Positions 7,074 through 22,029 of a DNA stretch of 64,000 bases are shown one piece after another; positions within the stretch are counted from its first letter, which is position 1, and the number at the start of each line of letters is the position of its first letter. The notes beneath the pieces are model-generated. The model worked only from the letters and a program-made list of their open reading frames with translations. It searched no databases and had not been told where the DNA came from. The position numbers and the translations under genes were made by a program. Source of the DNA: a virus; IMG/VR virus record IMGVR_UViG_3300009129_001478, positions 33,632-97,631 of that record; one strand, 5' to 3'.

Positions 7074-7146
7074 AGGGACATAGCTCAGTTGGTAGAGCAA
7101 CAGACTTTTAATCTGATGGTCGTGGGTTCAATCCCCACTGTCCCCA
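7074..7146 (+). tRNA. trnK: tRNA-Lys (UUU)
   Basis: Cloverleaf, anticodon loop CTTTTAA, T-loop TTCAATC; A1:C72 and A27:A43 mismatches; no encoded CCA. Confidence 0.9.
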
Positions 7147-7160
7147 CAACAGGAATGACA

Positions 7161-8388: not shown

Positions 8389-9282
8389 ATGATTTATCAT
8401 ATTGATGTTGTTGATGGTCTCCGGAAATTAGAGTCTGAGAGTGCTGACTGTATTATTGTTGACCCGCCGTATAACATCGGCAAAGATTACGGCAATAACA
8501 AAACAGAACTAGAGACTTCAGAATATGTTTCCTGGGCTAAACAATGGCTGGCAGAATGCGAACGAGTTCTGAAGCCCGAGGGAACGCTGTATATTTATGG
8601 CTTCTCAGAAATCCTCGCACACCTGTCAGTGAATATCAATATGAATAAGCGTTGGCTAATCTGGCATTATACAAATAAGACAGTTCCCAGCTTAAACTTT
8701 TGGCAAAGAACTCACGAATCTATTTTGTGTTGCTGGAAAGAGCAGAAAACCTTCTTCAGGGATCAAGTAAGAATTCCATATACTGAAACGTTTCTCAAAA
8801 ATGCAGCGGGCAAAAAAAGGAAAAATACAAAAGGACGCTTTGGCAACAAAGAAAGCACCTATACAGCCCACGAAAAGGGAGCACTTCCAAGAGATGTTAT
8901 TTGCTCTCCATCTTTGGCTGGTGGTGCTGGTTTGAAAGAAAGATTCTTTTATTCTCCTTCCCGCGAAAAGCTGTATACCTCTAAGCAGAAAAAAGCTCTC
9001 GTTGTGGATGATACGATTTCACATCCCACTCAGAAGCCGACGAAGGTAACAGAAATTCTTTTGGATGCCTGCATTGAAGAAGGAAGTTCAGCAACGGTTG
9101 TTGTGCCATTTGCTGGCACTGGCAGCGAATGTTATGTTTGTGAGCAGCGTGGTTATGAGTGGACAGCATTTGAAATCAATGAAGAATTTGTAGATATGGG
9201 AAATCTGTTGGTGAAAGATGGGTTTCCAAACAACAAAGAAGAGGAACTGATAGAATACGATTATTGTGGGCCTGTATCATAA
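8389..9282 (+). CDS. N6-adenine/N4-cytosine DNA methyltransferase (beta class)
   Basis: DPPY motif IV N-terminal, HPTQKP, motif I VPFAGTGS, FEINEEF. Confidence 0.92.
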   Translation: MIYHIDVVDGLRKLESESADCIIVDPPYNIGKDYGNNKTELETSEYVSWAKQWLAECERVLKPEGTLYIYGFSEILAHLSVNINMNKRWLIWHYTNKTVPSLNFWQRTHESILCCWKEQKTFFRDQVRIPYTETFLKNAAGKKRKNTKGRFGNKESTYTAHEKGALPRDVICSPSLAGGAGLKERFFYSPSREKLYTSKQKKALVVDDTISHPTQKPTKVTEILLDACIEEGSSATVVVPFAGTGSECYVCEQRGYEWTAFEINEEFVDMGNLLVKDGFPNNKEEELIEYDYCGPVS

Positions 9283-9344
9283 TTGGTTAATGAAACCGCC
9301 TCATAAGCGGTTATATCGGGGTTCAAGTCCCTGCGGGCCTACCA
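9268..9344 (+). tRNA. trnI: tRNA-Ile2 (CAU, lysidine-modified type)
   Basis: GGGCCTG acceptor stem, anticodon loop CTCATAA, discriminator A, encoded CCA. Lacks initiator features. tilS is nearby. Confidence 0.85.
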
Positions 9345-9346
9345 AA

Positions 9347-9423
9347 GGACCAGTAGCTCAGTTGGATAGAGCAACAGCCTTCTAAGCTGTCGGTCGCAGG
9401 TTCAAATCCTGCCTGGTTCGCCA
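9347..9423 (+). tRNA. trnR: tRNA-Arg (UCU)
   Basis: Cloverleaf, anticodon loop CTTCTAA, encoded CCA. Confidence 0.95.
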
Positions 9424-9425
9424 TT

Positions 9426-9500
<75 letters not shown>

Positions 9501-9501
<1 letters not shown>

Positions 9502-9530
9502 AGCCTCATCTTCGGGTGGGGCTTTTTTAT
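9501..9530 (+). terminator. Rho-independent terminator
   Basis: GCCTCATC-TTCG-GGTGGGGC hairpin followed by a T-run. Confidence 0.85.
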
Positions 9531-9532
9531 TT

Positions 9533-9560
9533 TTTACGATCCCTTAAAACTATGTATAAT
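9533..9560 (+). promoter_or_regulatory. sigma70-type promoter for tRNA-Ala/Ser
   Basis: TTTACG-N16-TATAAT, 10 nt upstream of tRNA-Ala. Confidence 0.6.
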
Positions 9561-9570
9561 AGAACACGAA

Positions 9571-9646
9571 GGGGAGTTAGCTCATCTGGTAGAGCGCCTG
9601 CTTTGCACGCAGGGGGTGATCGGTTCGACTCCGATACTCTCCACCA
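9571..9646 (+). tRNA. trnA: tRNA-Ala (UGC)
   Basis: Cloverleaf, G3:U70 pair, anticodon loop TTTGCAC, encoded CCA. Confidence 0.95.
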
Positions 9647-9650
9647 TAGA

Positions 9651-9693
9651 GTGCGATTCTAGCACACGACCTGAGCATGTCACAAAACTGCTT
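9651..9693 (+). ncRNA. Small hairpin plus H-type pseudoknot in the tRNA spacer
   Basis: GTGC/GCAC hairpin; then stem GAC/GTC with loop GAGCA complementary to downstream TGCTT after an A-rich linker. Confidence 0.4.
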
Positions 9694-9699
9694 ATATTT

Positions 9700-9787
9700 G
9701 GAAGGATGACCGAGAGGCCGATGGTGCAGCATTGGAAATGCTGTGTGGGGTAACCCACCGAGGGTTCGAATCCCTCTCCTTCCTCCA
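9700..9787 (+). tRNA. trnS: tRNA-Ser (GGA)
   Basis: Class II tRNA with long variable arm GTGGG-GTAA-CCCAC, anticodon loop TTGGAAA, encoded CCA. Confidence 0.93.
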
Positions 9788-10062: not shown

Positions 10063-10710
10063 ATGGCCATGATTGGTAATACAATTGTTGCAAGAGGTGA
10101 ACACCTCTCTGATAAATCGGTCGCTGACGCGATCGTAGTTTCTGACGCGTCAAGTCAGGCTAGCACTCTTGGTGCTCAGTTGACTGCTTTGCGCGCTTCG
10201 GATGCTTCCGAAGCTTCTGCTCGTGCTGCTGCTGATACTGCTGTTAGCGCTGCATTCGCTGCTGCTGACACTGCCTTGGTTGGTGGTGCATCTGCAAGTC
10301 ACAACACATTGAAGAAGATCGAAGATCTTCTTGATGCTGAGATTGCTGCTCGTGGTGCTGCTGATACTGCTGACGCTGCTGCTTGGGCTGCTGCTGACGT
10401 TGTAGTTAGCAATGCATTCGCTGCTGCTGACACTGCCTTGGTTGGTGGTGCATCTGCAACTCACAACACATTGAAGAAGATCGAAGATCTTCTTGATGCT
10501 GAGATTGCTGCTCGTGGTGCTGCTGATACTGCTGTTAGCGCTGCATTCGCTGCTGCTGACACCGCTCTAGGTGCTCGCATTGATAATCTTAAGTCAGGTG
10601 CTGCCAGTGAGAAATTCGCTCAGATCACCCTTCAGGACGCCGCTGTGTCTACTGATTCATATAGCCTCACTGTTAGTAATGGTGAGATGGTCTTCGCGAA
10701 GATCGCATAA
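10063..10710 (+). CDS. Ala-rich coiled-coil repeat protein, probable virion fibre/decoration protein
   Basis: Strong RBS GAGGAGG; GCT-biased codons; two near-identical 54-aa repeats with GGAS..HNTLKKIEDLL, resembling the DTLKEI motif of phage fibre proteins. Confidence 0.75.
   Translation: MAMIGNTIVARGEHLSDKSVADAIVVSDASSQASTLGAQLTALRASDASEASARAAADTAVSAAFAAADTALVGGASASHNTLKKIEDLLDAEIAARGAADTADAAAWAAADVVVSNAFAAADTALVGGASATHNTLKKIEDLLDAEIAARGAADTAVSAAFAAADTALGARIDNLKSGAASEKFAQITLQDAAVSTDSYSLTVSNGEMVFAKIA
10251..10560 (+). repeat. Intragenic tandem repeat, 162-nt period
   Basis: tgcattcgctgctgctgacactgccttggttggtggtgcatctgcaa... at 10251 and 10413, nearly identical. Confidence 0.9.
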
Positions 10711-16089: not shown

Positions 16090-19000
16090 ATGGGTGGTGT
16101 CGCTGGTCACATGGACCATCTCTATGACAACAGAAGTCTAACATTTGGTAAGATGAAGGAGATTATAAAAGCCGCGGCGGATGCCGAGCTTACTGCCGAA
16201 GAAAAGGTAGACGGACAAAATCTCTTTCTTTCTTATTCTATTCCTGATGCTAAAGCCAAAGGAGCCAGAAATAAAGGAAATTTAATGGCCGGAGGTTTAG
16301 ACGCCGTTGGATTAGCCACAAAATTTGCCGGTAGAGGTGGATTAGAAAAAGCTTTTACAGGAGGCTTTGATGCTTTTGAAAGAGCGGTTGAGGCTCTTTC
16401 GGATGAAGAAAAGCTAAAAGTTTTCGGACCAGATACAAATATTTGGTATAACGCAGAAATTATGGATCCTGGCACCGAGGGGGATAAAAATGACCCCGGA
16501 TCAGTTAATGTGATTAAATATGATAACAAAACTTTGAAGATCCACGGTGTTGGTCATTTCCGTTTTGACAGAGAGACAGGGGAAAGGTTGCCCATCCCTG
16601 ATGGTTCATTAGAAACTATTGATAATTCTTTAGACAGAATGCAAAATCAGTTGTCTGGTCATCCTTTTTCTATTGCTCGTAAGGCAATTATCCAATTACA
16701 AAAATTAGAAGATGAAGAGGCTTTAATTAAGACAATCTCCCGAATCAATAAAGAAATATCCGACCACCAATTGAATGATGAGTCCACGATGATAGATTAT
16801 ATGTTTTCTCGTTTATCAAATGGTATGGATACCGACTTGCCTAATAATTTAAAAGATGAAATTGTCAAGTATCTTTTAAAGCTTCCCGGCAATATTGGAC
16901 TGAGGGCTCTCAAAAAAGGATTATCGCCACATGATCTACAAGATTTGAATAATATTATCAATTCTAGAAAATCATTGTTATTACAAGCTATTGAGCCCCT
17001 GGAAATAACTATACATGATTTTGCAGTTGAATTACTAAAAGGTTTGGATAGTGTTTTCATAGCTGACAGAGATGCCGAGGTTATCCGTCTTAGAGATGAG
17101 CTAGCCACAGCAGTTCGCGAATTGACAGCGAGAGGTCCCGAAGATCCCGCGGCAATGGAAGTGATGCAAAGACATTTGAATAAAATCAAAGACTTTTCAC
17201 AAATTACTACTCCTGTTGAGGCTGTGGTTTTTGATTATGATGGTCATACATATAAATTTTCTGGTAATTTTGCGCCGCTGAATCAAATTCTTGGAATGTT
17301 TAAGTTTGGTGGAAGAACCCCTGCTCCTGTACAGAAAGAAAGTGTATCTTATAACAGAACCATTCTAAAAGAAGATGAAGGAAATATTAAGAGAGAAAAA
17401 GCAAAACAATTTGTTCTCTCGCTTCCTAAATTTGTACCAACTGAGGCTTGGGGTGATCCTGCTTCTATGGAAAGAAAACAAATTCAAAAGATATTTGATA
17501 CTGTCGGTGGGGGTGCCACAATACAAGAAAAGCTTGCATTCCTAAACGATAGTATTGAAAATCCTCGCGGTGGTATTCGTTCACCACGAAGAATTATTAG
17601 CACTCTTATCTTATTAGAATCTTTATCAGCAGTCATTAGAAGCTTCAATTCTGCCTCTGCTGGCTTTGTTTTTGAGGGATTCTTATCAGCACTATTTCGT
17701 GGAAGACAAGAAGCTGAAGTGAGTGAAAAAGGAAATCTACCTATTCAAGATCTTATTGCCTTTTCAGAACTTGAGGATGCAAAACCAGTCCCTATTAGTC
17801 TCAAATTATTAAACCAAACAACCAAGATTGAAGGAAGTTATACTAATCTTGTTGATTCTCTAGAAGAGTTTGGACAAATGGTATATATCGTTGCTAGAAA
17901 AGATGGTGATAAAATTGCTTTAGAAAAATTCACTTTTACAAGAGATAATTTTATAAATGCAATTATTGCATCTGCTACTGGAGGCACCACAAAGGAATCT
18001 GACTTATTTACTTTGCCTCCTACGGTTGCGCGCACAACTGAAAATTCCATCAAAAGGCTTAATAAGTTAAAAGGTGATGCCAACTGGGCAGAAAAATATA
18101 AACTCTTACAAATGACAAAGGGCTATAGGAATAGAAAAAAGGTCCCTCCTGTACCAGATGAAACTGTTACAATTTCCGATGAACTGCCGGATGGAACTGA
18201 TATAAAACCTCAACAGCTAGCGGCTCATAGAGTCTACACTGTGGAAGAAAATAAGAGACTTCTCTCGGAGGGATTATTATTAGAGCGCTCCGGTGGTACC
18301 CAGTGGTCTATTAGCCCCCAACAACTTAAGGCTATTTCTAGAAACTTGGATTACGAGACTCTAGGAACACTACCAATCTCCACAGAAAGAGTGGTTGACA
18401 TTGCCGAACAATATATGGAATTCTTATCTGATAATTTACAAAGAGTTTTTGATGCAACCTCTAAGTTGTCTGAAAATATAAGTGACTATTTCACCTATCA
18501 AGATAGAAGTCAGGCTATTGGTGCCGGACAAAAAGCAATTGAAGAATCTAAAATTGTTGCTGACGAGATGACTCAGCAGATTTCTCAGGATACGAGCGTC
18601 CCAGGACAACGCAATGAATCTGTTCAACATCTCGTTGAGGAAAAAGGTAAAAGAATTGCATTGTTTCCCGGCAAGTTCAAGCCACCTCATAAAGGTCACT
18701 ACGAGTTCGTAAATCAAGTGGCTAAAAGATCTGATGTAGATAATGTAATAGTTTTGATTAGCCCTGTGGATAAAGCAGAGGTCTCTGCCGAGGAATCTTT
18801 AGAGATATGGTCTAGGTTTCTATCTTCCCCTGACGCATCACCTAATATAAGCGTAGATATCGCAGATTATAGAAGTCCTGTAACTACGGTATATGAATTT
18901 TTAGCTGATCCTGTAAAGTCAAGACCAAAAGACACTATCCTACTAATCAAGAGCAGTAAGGACGAGGGTGATGCCCGTTTTCAGAATGCTAAAGCATATG

Positions 19001-19392
19001 CCGAAAGACATAACCCAGGAGTTTCCGTAGAAGAAATAGAAGAAGACCCGATCACATCCTCTACCGGTGTAGTATTCAGCGCTGAAGATTTGCGTGAGTT
19101 TATTACCGCAAATAAAAAAGAAGAATTCCTTAGTTATATGCCCGACAGTATTGACGGTGAAGAAATTTGGAGAATATTCAAGCCAATGGATCAGGTTGAT
19201 TCTGAGATTGATAATGCAATAGAGGAAATGTCTAGCATGGCTGGTGGCAGCATAGGTGGCTCTGCCTCTGCGCCGGCCGCTGGCGCGCCACTTGGTTCGC
19301 CAGGTTATGCGCCGGCTTCTTTTCCGAAGAAAAGACGCAAAAAAAGCACGAAACCTAAAGTAAATCGTCCCAAACGTCAAAGACGAAGATAA
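16090..19392 (+). CDS. Multidomain protein: RNA/DNA-ligase-like nucleotidyltransferase + putative PD-(D/E)xK-like domain + HxGH nucleotidyltransferase
   Basis: EKVDGQN (KxDG), NAEIM, VEAVVF...YKF in the N-terminal third; AGFVFEGFL...PIQD...PISLK in the middle; FPGKFKPPHKGH in the C-terminal part. Confidence 0.7.
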   Translation: MGGVAGHMDHLYDNRSLTFGKMKEIIKAAADAELTAEEKVDGQNLFLSYSIPDAKAKGARNKGNLMAGGLDAVGLATKFAGRGGLEKAFTGGFDAFERAVEALSDEEKLKVFGPDTNIWYNAEIMDPGTEGDKNDPGSVNVIKYDNKTLKIHGVGHFRFDRETGERLPIPDGSLETIDNSLDRMQNQLSGHPFSIARKAIIQLQKLEDEEALIKTISRINKEISDHQLNDESTMIDYMFSRLSNGMDTDLPNNLKDEIVKYLLKLPGNIGLRALKKGLSPHDLQDLNNIINSRKSLLLQAIEPLEITIHDFAVELLKGLDSVFIADRDAEVIRLRDELATAVRELTARGPEDPAAMEVMQRHLNKIKDFSQITTPVEAVVFDYDGHTYKFSGNFAPLNQILGMFKFGGRTPAPVQKESVSYNRTILKEDEGNIKREKAKQFVLSLPKFVPTEAWGDPASMERKQIQKIFDTVGGGATIQEKLAFLNDSIENPRGGIRSPRRIISTLILLESLSAVIRSFNSASAGFVFEGFLSALFRGRQEAEVSEKGNLPIQDLIAFSELEDAKPVPISLKLLNQTTKIEGSYTNLVDSLEEFGQMVYIVARKDGDKIALEKFTFTRDNFINAIIASATGGTTKESDLFTLPPTVARTTENSIKRLNKLKGDANWAEKYKLLQMTKGYRNRKKVPPVPDETVTISDELPDGTDIKPQQLAAHRVYTVEENKRLLSEGLLLERSGGTQWSISPQQLKAISRNLDYETLGTLPISTERVVDIAEQYMEFLSDNLQRVFDATSKLSENISDYFTYQDRSQAIGAGQKAIEESKIVADEMTQQISQDTSVPGQRNESVQHLVEEKGKRIALFPGKFKPPHKGHYEFVNQVAKRSDVDNVIVLISPVDKAEVSAEESLEIWSRFLSSPDASPNISVDIADYRSPVTTVYEFLADPVKSRPKDTILLIKSSKDEGDARFQNAKAYAERHNPGVSVEEIEEDPITSSTGVVFSAEDLREFITANKKEEFLSYMPDSIDGEEIWRIFKPMDQVDSEIDNAIEEMSSMAGGSIGGSASAPAAGAPLGSPGYAPASFPKKRRKKSTKPKVNRPKRQRRR

Positions 19393-19412: not shown

Positions 19413-20207
19413 ATGATCAACAGAAAAACCTTAGTAGCCGAACAGTTGATTCGCGAATATGTGCGCGAAAAACTAAAAGAACGTCTTGGTAACATCCATA
19501 GGCAAGAGGCTCACTTGAGGGCTGCCATCAGAACTTTAATTGTAGAAGCTGAGACAGGAACAGAAGAGCCCAGCACATACACAGGTATTAACGTTTTGGC
19601 AGATTTGTTGAGAAATATTATCCCCACAGTTCAAGATGATTACATGATGCTCACAACATCTAAGGAACAGAGAGATTCTTTTCGTAACCACTTGATCCAT
19701 GCTGTCAAAGATTCCTTGAGACCTATTGAAATAACTACTGATGCTGAAGATCTGGAAGTATCTGAAAATATAGAGTATAAAATTGACAAAACTTTGTTGA
19801 CTGAGAAAGTTGTGGTAGATATTGACGACGGTGAAGAAGAACTAGAGTCTCTAGAGGGCGAATTCATTGATATTGAAGAAGAAGAGGAGGATGAGTTCGT
19901 TCAAATAGAAGATCAGAACGAGACAGGTAGAAACTTTGCCGCCGATTCTTTTAAGAGAGTTGAAAAACAGATCGTAGATGCCTATGACATGCTGGCAGAC
20001 AACCAAGATAGAGACCTGTTTTACGATTATCTCATTACAAACTTACTTCTCTATTTTGATAAGTTTGAAAACGATCTGGCGAACACACTCCCAGATGTAA
20101 CCACTCCCGAATATGAAGCGGAAAAAGAAAAAGAAGATTTAGATCAAATTGAAGATCTTGCTGCCGAAGAGGCAGAGGAAGAATTTGAACTAGATTTAGA
20201 AATTTAA
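19413..20207 (+). CDS. Acidic hypothetical protein (possible internal head protein)
   Basis: 264 aa, very Glu/Asp-rich, several (I/L)xE motifs. Confidence 0.75.
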   Translation: MINRKTLVAEQLIREYVREKLKERLGNIHRQEAHLRAAIRTLIVEAETGTEEPSTYTGINVLADLLRNIIPTVQDDYMMLTTSKEQRDSFRNHLIHAVKDSLRPIEITTDAEDLEVSENIEYKIDKTLLTEKVVVDIDDGEEELESLEGEFIDIEEEEEDEFVQIEDQNETGRNFAADSFKRVEKQIVDAYDMLADNQDRDLFYDYLITNLLLYFDKFENDLANTLPDVTTPEYEAEKEKEDLDQIEDLAAEEAEEEFELDLEI

Positions 20208-20295
20208 CTTAACACTTTCTTTTAAACTATTATACTGCTATTGTCAGCTTTGAAAACCCTGCTAGCATTAATAGCATTTTCTGAAGGTAAATAAG

Positions 20296-20324
20296 TTGAC
20301 AAGTACTGCGTCATATTGTATAGT
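20296..20324 (+). promoter_or_regulatory. sigma70-type promoter of tmRNA
   Basis: TTGACA-N17-TATAGT, 9 nt upstream of the tmRNA 5' end. Confidence 0.8.
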
Positions 20325-20333
20325 CTTATATAC

Positions 20334-20660
20334 GGGGGTAACAGGTATCGATTGATGGGAAAGTAAAAACGGTGCAAGGGTGAGGGAAGCGGGGCTCACT
20401 AAAAACGCTTATCTAATAATCGCAGCTTAAAAACGATTATACAAAAAACATCAGCAGCTTAAAAACCTGACTATGTTTGAGGCGGTGGCAGCCAATAAAC
20501 AGAAAGCTACGCTATGTTTCTAAGTGCTTTTGATTGTTTTGGCCGGAATAAAACGATCTAGTCAAGTGGTCTGTCCGACGAAAAAAACAGCTCTAACCTT
20601 GTGAATGACCTTTTTATGGAACTAGACAAGACGGGAGTTCGAATCTCCCTACCTCCACCA
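20334..20660 (+). ncRNA. ssrA: tmRNA
   Basis: 5' GGGGGTA pairs with 3' TACCTCC-A-CCA (G3:U70); T-arm GGGAG-TTCGAAT-CTCCC preceded by GAC; pk1 GTGAG/CTCAC with AAGCG/CGCTT; 327 nt. Confidence 0.92.
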
Positions 20661-20686
20661 GCCGCCTTCGGGCGGCTTTTTCTTTG
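20661..20686 (+). terminator. Rho-independent terminator
   Basis: GCCGCC-TTCG-GGCGGC-TTTTT. Confidence 0.9.
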
Positions 20687-20727
20687 TTGAATCAACTAGA
20701 TATTAAAGTAGACAAGGAGGTCATAAA

Positions 20728-22029
20728 TTGACCAAAACAGTGTTATTAGATACAAATGTTTTATTAACTGAAGTTCAGTCTATTTTATCGTTCGGAAAAA
20801 ACAACATCGCCATTCCGACAATTGTTTTAGATGAAATAGATAAGCATAAGCACAGACAAGATACACCGGGACTAAATGCCCGCATTACCAACAGATTCCT
20901 AGATGAACTAAGAGAAAAGGGTAGTCTCCTGAGTGGAGTATCTCTGGGACGAAGTAAAGGAAAGATATTTGCCGCGCAGTTTGATAAAGAATATATCCCT
21001 GATGGTATGAATCCAGACGATTCGGATAATAAGATAATTGCCACCGCCCTCAAGCTCATATCAGAAAAACAAGAAGTTACAGTAATTTCTAGGGATATCA
21101 ACATGCGGGTCAAATGTGATTCATTTGGGATTCCATGTCAAGATTACCATCCTGAAAAAGTAATCAGTTCGGTCAAAAACCTTTACGACGGTGCCTCAGT
21201 TATTGAAGTAGACGAAGATCTTATAAACGATTTTTATGCCGGCAAATCTACTTATATGCCGAAAGAATTGGGGCTTTTCCCTAATCAATTTGTTTTACTA
21301 AAAAGCCAGAGTAGTTCTAAATCTGCTGTTTGTGGATATAAAAACCCAAACACGCCCTTGGCAAAAATAAACAAATACAAAAACATATGGGGATTATCGG
21401 CAAAAAATAAAGAACAAGATTTCGCCATGAATCTTTTATTCAATCAAGACATACAAATAGTGTCAATGACCGGTCCTGCCGGAACGGGAAAGACATTACT
21501 GGCAGCGGCTTGTGGATTAGAACAGGTTGTCAATAAATCTAAAACATCCGGAGGGTACGACAAGCTCATTATTACCCGACCAGTACAACCCATGGGAAGA
21601 GACATTGGGTTTCTGCCCGGTACTCTAGAAGAAAAGATGTCCCCATGGATCGCTCCTTTGCGCGATAATTTAGAGCACCTTTACGGCGACCGTATGGCAC
21701 TTGATATGCAGATAGAACAAGGAATTATTGAGATAGAAGCAATGACTTTTATCCGAGGCAGATCTATAGCAAATGCATTCATAATAGTAGATGAAGCGCA
21801 GAATTTAACAGCCCATGAGTTAAAGACTATAATTACACGAGTGGGACATGGGACAAAACTCATTTTGACTGGAGATGTTCAACAGATAGACAATTCTTAT
21901 GTTGATGCTGTCTCAAATGGGCTTACTCATGCTGTGGAAAAATTCAAAAACTATGAAATCTCCGGACATGTTACTCTATACAAAGGCGAACGCTCCAAAT
22001 TGGCAACATTAGCAGCGAAGATATTATGA
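20728..22029 (+). CDS. phoH: PhoH2-type protein (PIN RNase domain + PhoH ATPase)
   Basis: LLDTNVL (PIN), GPAGTGKT, RDIGFLPG, FIRGRS, VDEAQN, GDVQQID. Confidence 0.93.
   Translation: MTKTVLLDTNVLLTEVQSILSFGKNNIAIPTIVLDEIDKHKHRQDTPGLNARITNRFLDELREKGSLLSGVSLGRSKGKIFAAQFDKEYIPDGMNPDDSDNKIIATALKLISEKQEVTVISRDINMRVKCDSFGIPCQDYHPEKVISSVKNLYDGASVIEVDEDLINDFYAGKSTYMPKELGLFPNQFVLLKSQSSSKSAVCGYKNPNTPLAKINKYKNIWGLSAKNKEQDFAMNLLFNQDIQIVSMTGPAGTGKTLLAAACGLEQVVNKSKTSGGYDKLIITRPVQPMGRDIGFLPGTLEEKMSPWIAPLRDNLEHLYGDRMALDMQIEQGIIEIEAMTFIRGRSIANAFIIVDEAQNLTAHELKTIITRVGHGTKLILTGDVQQIDNSYVDAVSNGLTHAVEKFKNYEISGHVTLYKGERSKLATLAAKIL

Follow-up and report, generated by a model that had tools for sequence, protein, structure and literature searches.

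The 64,000-nucleotide stretch analysed here (the window) belongs to a 97.6-kb IMG/VR contig with an estimated completeness of about 48%. A T4-type Gp23 capsid protein is encoded by related contigs, which measure 175-179 kb and are 95-98% complete, and on this basis we assign the DNA to an uncultured T4-like myophage; the runs in which the sequence occurs are marine metagenomes. At 20334..20660 on the + strand, as are all elements of the gene described below, lies a full-length, one-piece tmRNA (ssrA) gene ending in ACCA. The Rfam model RF00023 matches this interval from end to end in an Infernal search (67.5 bits against a gathering score of 47, model positions 1-374), and the assignment is further supported by syntenic homologues and by the retention of 61 of the 63 base pairs of the family consensus. 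An earlier note on this DNA had proposed a phage tmRNA, and the full-length RF00023 match, the G3:U70 pair, the T-arm and the CCA end bear this out. It had also named ARAGORN and Infernal as checks; Infernal recovers the full model, as just described, whereas ARAGORN calls no tmRNA. Since ARAGORN likewise fails on 8 of 35 relatives whose tags are ordinary, its silence on this gene is not diagnostic.

The gene is flanked by recognizable signals for transcription. A sigma-70-type promoter (TTGACA-17-TATAGT, 20296..20324, 11/12 matches) ends 9 nt 5' of the mature 5' end, and the TTGACA...TATA(G/A)T arrangement is also seen upstream of most relatives' tmRNAs. Directly after the CCA stands an intrinsic terminator (GCCGCC-TTCG-GGCGGC with a T-run, 20660..20687), which is conserved in nearly all relatives. 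Within the RNA, the 5' strand of the 7-bp acceptor stem (GGGGGTA, 20334..20340) pairs with 20650-20656 (UACCUCC, before ACCA; alignment columns 2-8 with 344-350), and the G-U at pair 3, the G3:U70 pair, is present in 40 of the 40 sequences of the family alignment. The T-arm (GGGAG-TTCGAAT-CTCCC, 20633..20649) forms 5 bp, as indicated by the Rfam match and by columns 327-331 with 339-343. The pseudoknot 1 region (20380..20410), recognized from the Rfam match and the family alignment, comprises a GTGAG...CTCAC stem and AAGCG/CGCTT. Across the family, 24 of the 63 consensus base pairs show compensatory changes; pseudoknot 1 is nearly invariant and hence uninformative for covariation, as are the second stems of the pseudoknots, which are either invariant or outside the model. 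Helix 5 (20453..20472; columns 122-127 with 137-143) has compensatory changes among the relatives and contains GCA GCT TAA (20454-20462), the end of the original tag, no longer translated; it keeps 5 of its 6 pairs here, the outermost alone being broken.

Behind the frame-setting context TAATC (U-5, A-4, A-3, U-2, C-1; 20417..20421), which is identical in the relatives L003, L030, L020, L025 and L021 with GCA as their resume codon, and thus directly 3' of ...AATAATC, lies the mini-ORF GCA GCT TAA (20422..20430, translation AA*). Its predicted addition to a rescued chain is Ala (from the charged tmRNA)-Ala-Ala. At two codons it falls short of the customary tag length, natural tmRNA tags being reported to range from 8 to 35 residues (PMC2862035); the Ala-Ala end and the stop are present, and the upstream parts of the degron are absent. 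The earlier note had drawn attention to this resume context with its early stop, and the frame set by the canonical context does end after two codons. The frame of E. coli tmRNA is set by the five nucleotides that precede the resume codon, UAGUC in that species, and above all by A86 at position -4 (PMC2481249). As UAAUC is identical to the context of relatives whose conserved tags prove the use of frame 0, resumption in frame 0, and hence Ala-Ala-stop, is expected for the short-tag tmRNA. Moreover, the contig has no suppressor tRNA and TAA is the commonest stop codon of its long ORFs, which together argue that the stop of the mini-ORF is not read through. The 13-mer GCAGCTTAAAAAC, which the note had seen to be repeated, is present in two copies, at 20422 and 20454, and not elsewhere in the 64-kb window, against a chance expectation of 0.01 in shuffled sequence, with two matches in 0 of 100 shuffles.

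The short-tag sequence is recovered with 0 differences and 0 gaps in Logan contigs from three samples of two studies: X1, the probable source sample (a contig of 3926 nt), and, from the second study, X2 (record 5, 206 nt, 20371-20576) and X3 (record 11, 854 nt, 20000-20576). A further sample, X7, was not counted among the carriers of the variant, its share being too small; its contig carries the tag region of a relative. Over 20334-20554, other contigs from X1 (record 2) and X7 (record 20) are found to come from related phages with a tag region of normal length. The presence of related tag alleles in the same samples makes co-infection and recombination between such alleles possible. The short tag itself is known from one strain-level population only.

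We gathered relatives from IMG/VR with the PhoH protein as a query and then with the invariant PK1 motif, and obtained 49 contigs in which a full-length tmRNA occupies the corresponding position upstream of PIN-PhoH, representing 40 distinct sequences. All 49 encode normal tags of 11-13 codons, starting at the same GCA (or GCU/GCC) after a UAAUC-type context. Among the distinct sequences the tags are ANDDFQLAQAA (14), ANDDFNMEMAA (6), ANNNAELALAA (6), ANDDFQLALAA (4) and minor variants, and the most distant relative encodes ANNSNYNDYALAA. In the family alignment codons 1, 2, 10 and 11 vary synonymously, with Ala, Asn, Ala and Ala being kept, and because this variation is synonymous we regard the long tag as a translated and selected message in the family. 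The second and third positions of tag codon 9 covary with bases 3' of the stop (A-U, U-A, G-C and C-G are all seen); helix 5 in this way reaches into the tag, so that codon 9 has to satisfy the RNA structure as well as the peptide. This dual constraint may account for the discrete tag classes (QLAQ, QLAL, NMEM and AELAL).

The early stop, whose conservation in related phages the earlier note had proposed to check, is shared by 0 of the 49 relatives. As 49 of 49 encode normal tags, we take the short tag to be the derived state of its lineage; judged from this comparison, it is a lineage-specific truncation and no designed property of this phage tmRNA family. The note had named two findings that would together speak against its reading: the first, an intact AND...AA tag in the relatives, is what we observe in 49 of 49, while the second, an extra GCTTAAA unsupported by reads, is contradicted by the independent samples that carry it. 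A search of IMG/VR with the exact short-tag motif gave no match, as did BLAST of the tmRNA and the surrounding 15 kb against public phage records. The sole match to the motif among JGI metagenome contigs, L093, was rejected as a chance 20-mer match, as this contig is GC-rich, dissimilar and without a tmRNA. The closest comparison is offered by the sister tmRNAs of L003, L030 and L025 (tag ANDDFQLALAA), which occupy the same locus with the same promoter and terminator, show about 88-89% identity outside the tag, and are identical to the short-tag tmRNA in PK1, UAAUC|GCA, helix 5 and the tRNA-like domain. These sisters encode 11 codons ending in AA, whereas the short-tag RNA stops after codon 2 and shows, besides the 7-nt duplication, a decayed interior with a broken frame.

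Alignment against this nearest tag class suggests a model of three events for the origin of the short frame. In the first, the 7 nt GCTTAAA, located immediately 3' of the penultimate codon of the tag, would have been copied to just behind the resume GCA, creating GCA GCU UAA. The resulting insertion (20425..20431) is an exact copy of 20457-20463 and is absent from 49 of 49 relatives; GCA on the left and AAC on the right flank both sites, a signature of a template switch between microhomologies. The duplicated tag end of the earlier note thus corresponds to a GCTTAAA copy that is present and real in independent samples. The further steps would be the loss of one unit of a tandem CGA-CGA and the gain of one A, giving a net change of +5 nt: the tag interior, bounded by the resume codon and the terminal GCAGCUUAA, measures 24 nt in 39 of 39 distinct aligned relatives and 29 nt here. 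What is left of the old tag interior (20432..20453) is, by alignment, a relic of 22 nt as against 24 nt in the relatives; its phase matches neither the resume codon nor the old tag end, such that the old frame would miss its Ala-Ala stop even without the duplication. Beyond the duplication, the old tag has thus undergone two further indels, together with 6-7 substitutions in 21 alignable nt relative to the nearest relatives. Neutral divergence from those relatives is near saturation (p of 0.64 at 4-fold sites; 85% amino-acid identity in PhoH). As a rough estimate, the truncation would not be brand new, yet it would be younger than the split from the sampled relatives.

We then compared the constraint on the RNA body with that on the former tag, using columns that are at least 90% conserved among the relatives. 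In the body only 4 of 216 such columns are changed, which is ordinary for the family, and the 61 consensus pairs kept compare with a median of 62 in the relatives, among which the number can fall to 48. In the former tag interior, by contrast, 7 of 13 conserved columns are changed (Fisher p = 9e-8 against the body), and this excess stays clear when the four adjacent insertion columns are counted as one event; no relative deviates at more than one interior column. The raw identity of the tag interior was set aside as evidence, as 14% of relative pairs at a similar distance are equally different; it is not significant because the family has several tag classes, and the conserved-column test was used in its place. 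The marks of a pseudogene are not seen: the gene retains both ends, G3:U70, its promoter and its terminator, and the change in the body lies within the range of the relatives. Such a conserved body next to a selectively decayed old tag argues against a decaying pseudogene, and the picture that we favour from these patterns is of an RNA that still works but probably no longer needs its long message.

Based on these observations we propose, with a probability of roughly 0.6, that the locus encodes an expressed, intact tmRNA which rescues ribosomes and adds only Ala-Ala-Ala, a weak degron, the loss of the tag being tolerated. The short-tag RNA would gain access to stalled ribosomes, accept the nascent chain and let translation terminate at a genuine stop codon, upon which the ribosome would be recycled; as translation on the tmRNA would end after GCA GCU, rescued chains would receive Ala-Ala-Ala alone, and the degradation signal would shrink to a bare Ala-Ala carboxy terminus. 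Because the ANDD(F) part and the hydrophobic antepenultimate residue are absent, proteolysis should be weak and dependent on the last residues of the substrate. By analogy with studied tmRNAs we infer the charging with alanine, the use of SmpB, the tri-alanine product and its weak degradation. The most likely history would be one in which the lost tag length was tolerated because ribosome rescue is the main benefit of a tmRNA to the phage. The earlier note had likewise suggested an RNA that frees ribosomes while weakening proteolytic targeting, and such a behaviour would fit published engineered variants (PMC2862035, PMC7652416, PMC10862746). Thus, an E. coli SsrA-STOP allele, which stops right after the resume codon, supports lambda-immP22 with an EOP of 0.9 (PMC2862035). 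Ala-Ala-COO- is the main determinant for ClpX (PMC7652416); terminal Ala-Ala, though necessary, is by itself insufficient for ClpXP without suitable upstream residues, and tags of fewer than 5 residues were weak in one screen (PMC10862746).

Several observations count against this proposal. The H. pylori SsrA-STOP allele (Ala-Val) is viable, yet it failed to complement the growth of E. coli (PMC2862035), which implies that minimal ORFs are not always functional. The long tag is under purifying selection in the 49 relatives, and the tag is therefore normally of importance to these phages. The Rfam score of the short-tag tmRNA is the lowest in the family (67.5 as against 81-110 bits in 8 relatives), and its stronger hairpin, taken up below, could by analogy with E. 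coli lower its activity somewhat by burying A-4 and the resume codon. Separately from these points, RNase R recruitment in E. coli is sensitive to which two codons end the tag (GCA GCU) and to where they lie (PMC4176180). These codons are kept in the short tag but moved away from helix 5, and whether nonstop-mRNA decay would proceed with the short tag is uncertain.

An alternative that we consider possible but unlikely is that the two-codon tag is adaptive, with selection having favoured fast recycling of ribosomes while degradation was deliberately avoided or retuned. The benefits might lie in sparing ClpXP capacity, in keeping truncated products, or in competing with the host tmRNA so that chains escape the full degron. 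In line with such selection, the truncation keeps exactly GCA GCU UAA, which is to say the Ala-Ala end read by ClpX and the codons linked to RNase R (PMC7652416, PMC4176180); the body, promoter and terminator are fully conserved; the phage keeps an intact ClpP-like gene; and the short tag, seen in three samples of two studies, has lasted long enough for further changes to accumulate. However, the microhomology GCA...AAC yields this exact product without any selection, and the short tag is confined to 1 of 50 lineages, the others keeping the long tag under purifying selection, with neither recurrence nor diversity within the lineage. Furthermore, a truncated-tag tmRNA in E. coli gives smaller phage plaques (PMC2862035).

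Somewhat more doubtful is the view that the tmRNA is dead or dying, its message having been destroyed and resumption being blocked by a stabilised hairpin, with the rest of the gene yet to decay. The hairpin in question (20416..20440), which the earlier note had pointed out as able to fold over the resume codon, emerges from local folding as 7 bp between the arms ATAATCG (20416-22) and CGATTAT (20434-40), with an 11-nt loop holding the stop codon and an energy of -4.2 kcal/mol. The equivalent hairpin of the relatives has -1.5 to -3.7 kcal/mol, about -2.3 in most. In 34 of 40 sequences the helix pairs positions -4 to +1 with tag codons 4-5 in one register, while in the ANNN subgroup the register is shifted (CUGC/GCAG); 91% of the cells are paired, with a double change at one pair only (weak covariation), and we therefore treat the structure as a conserved tendency and no proven element. 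E. coli has a similar weak helix (85-90 with 95-100), and stabilising it blocks tmRNA function (PMC2481249). As a family-wide feature, seen in E. coli too, that survived the insertion, the hairpin gives no evidence of a switch. A hairpin that covers the frame-setting A and the resume codon more stably than in most relatives, recalling the stabilised helix that inactivates E. coli tmRNA (PMC2481249), would suit a dead gene, as would the lowest Rfam score in the family, the destruction of the tag frame by three indels and the occurrence in one known population only. Yet its -4.2 kcal/mol differs little from the -3.7 seen in the ANNNAELALAA subgroup, where the tag is normal, and the promoter and terminator are intact; the body changed at just 4 of 216 columns and kept 61 of 63 pairs during the same period in which the old tag gathered many changes.

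It is far less probable that translation resumes in another frame, one base earlier to give RSLKTIIQKTSAA or one base later to give QLKNDYTKNISSLKT, yielding a tag of normal length or a switchable frame, as the earlier note had entertained. Its reading of the -1 frame is accurate, in that this frame runs as RSLKTIIQKTSAA* and reaches the conserved stop within helix 5 after Ala-Ala, and the N-D-Y that it saw after the first stop exists as a relic at 20432-20440, within the +1 frame QLKNDYTKNISSLKT*. Adenines are present at both -4 and -3, and upstream mutations can shift the frame of E. coli tmRNA (PMC2481249). The idea of a switchable frame nevertheless finds no support in the upstream frame-setting sequence, as UAAUC is identical to that of the relatives with proven use of frame 0. 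Both other frames are open by unconstrained sequence only, a 1-in-3 phase match and 11-15 open codons being unremarkable in A-rich sequence; the alternative peptides share nothing with the ANDDF...AA pattern of the family, and the net +5 nt is explained by independent indels. CGC or CAG would also be an unusual resume codon. An artefact of sequencing or assembly, conceivable for a short direct repeat in a small RNA gene where related strains co-occur in a metagenome assembly, can be practically discounted, as an independent assembler returns the identical sequence in the source sample and, over 20371-20576, in two samples of the other study.

Turning to the partners that the RNA would require, genes for SmpB, ArfA and SspB are found neither in this contig nor in three larger relatives (for SmpB, the 98%- and 95%-complete ones), so that the short-tag RNA would presumably depend on the SmpB of the host. 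A scan of bacterial genomes for the resume/tag motif produced, among the matches listed, mostly chance hits and at least 9 real tmRNAs with the context AAUC|GCA AAC GAC GAU (L112, L115, L119, L122, L139, L144, L149, L164 and L175), all of the listed ones being gammaproteobacterial. They come from Pseudoalteromonas, Alcanivorax, Neptunicella, Methylophilaceae and Methylobacillus and specify tags of the form ANDD(N/S)(Y/F)(A/S)LAA. Outside the motif, none of these cellular tmRNAs among the matches listed resembles the phage tmRNA. We take the shared context as a hint of a host within the gammaproteobacterial class. A gene for a ClpP-family protease of about 200 aa is also encoded at 10131-10622 of the full contig (G000; L219:1444-2046), outside the window, and in the relatives L218, L220 and L221. 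In alignment with solved ClpP structures, the protein of this contig apparently retains the Ser, His and Asp positions. From its presence in four records it follows that the family carries both a tagging RNA whose tag ends in AA and a Clp protease subunit, and that the short-tag lineage keeps ClpP; the phage ClpP may be either a degradation partner or a head protease.

Among known systems, the standard one-piece bacterial tmRNA, as represented by E. coli SsrA (ANDENYALAA), shares with the phage RNA its architecture, G3:U70, CCA and the U-A-x-U-C before GCA, and both have a terminal GCA GCU UAA and a weak helix around the resume codon (PMC2481249, PMC4176180). The short-tag tmRNA differs in being viral, in having no SmpB in its genome, and in its 2 codons as against the natural 8-35 residues (PMC2862035). 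The E. coli SsrA-STOP and truncated-tag alleles and the H. pylori SsrA-STOP allele resemble it in having a stop directly, or almost directly, after the resume codon, and such engineered minimal-tag alleles retain ribosome rescue while losing the degron (PMC2862035). They are laboratory constructs of one codon plus stops, whereas the phage allele is natural, consists of two Ala codons, would have arisen by duplication and persists in the environment, with its function being predicted. The tmRNA remnant of mycobacteriophage DS6A, of which only the tRNA-like domain is left, is likewise borne by a phage and without a normal tag message (PMC4131195), but the short-tag tmRNA still has every pseudoknot region, together with the resume context and a mini-ORF that can be translated up to its stop. 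The alanine tails of the RqcH type are similar in product only, being short C-terminal runs of alanine that end in Ala-Ala, and such degrons are reported to be capable of directing proteins to ClpXP (cited in PMC7652416); the machinery, template-free tailing on split 50S subunits, is entirely different. Judged by these analogies, the phage RNA is probably best described as a natural variant of a known RNA that resembles the engineered rescue-only alleles.

Phage tmRNAs are known (PMC4131195, PMC9004378) and occur in about 2.3% of phage genomes in one survey (PMC9004378). In the literature examined, we found no report of a natural two-codon tag. What phages gain from a tmRNA may be ribosome rescue on the one hand or tagging for destruction with recycling of amino acids on the other. 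The present family offers a natural comparison between 49 phages with an AA-ending tag of 11-13 codons under selection and one circulating lineage with two alanine codons. As a tentative suggestion, which we regard as possible but unlikely, the short-tag form might be a tmRNA selected for separation of function, performing recycling only and leaving a bare tri-alanine tail, and thereby either uncoupling rescue from SspB/ClpXP or feeding a weak degron to ClpX and the phage ClpP. Were this true, such selected separation of function would be the first natural evidence that a viral tmRNA brings its benefit by rescue and not by tagging, and the tag would be the shortest natural one reported for a tmRNA. 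The significance is limited by the single lineage and by a function inferred from sequence and analogy. In practical terms, tag-based finders such as ARAGORN can miss short-tag genes of this kind.

The neighborhood of the tmRNA gene has further features. Directly downstream lies a PIN-PhoH fusion gene (433 aa, 20728-22029), and this pairing is kept in 49 of 49 relatives; upstream of the more distant PhoH genes (43-57% identity; L037, L038, L040, L041, L043 and L044) no tmRNA was detected. The 1100-aa ORF upstream of the tmRNA (16090-19392) has no Pfam match, and its sole PHROG match is a weak one to a cytidyltransferase, restricted to the C-terminal part (residues 843-1039). Six tRNA genes, located at 9268-9787 and 7074-7147, specify Lys, Met, Arg, Thr, Ala-UGC and Ser, and of these the Ala-UGC tRNA would decode the GCA resume codon.
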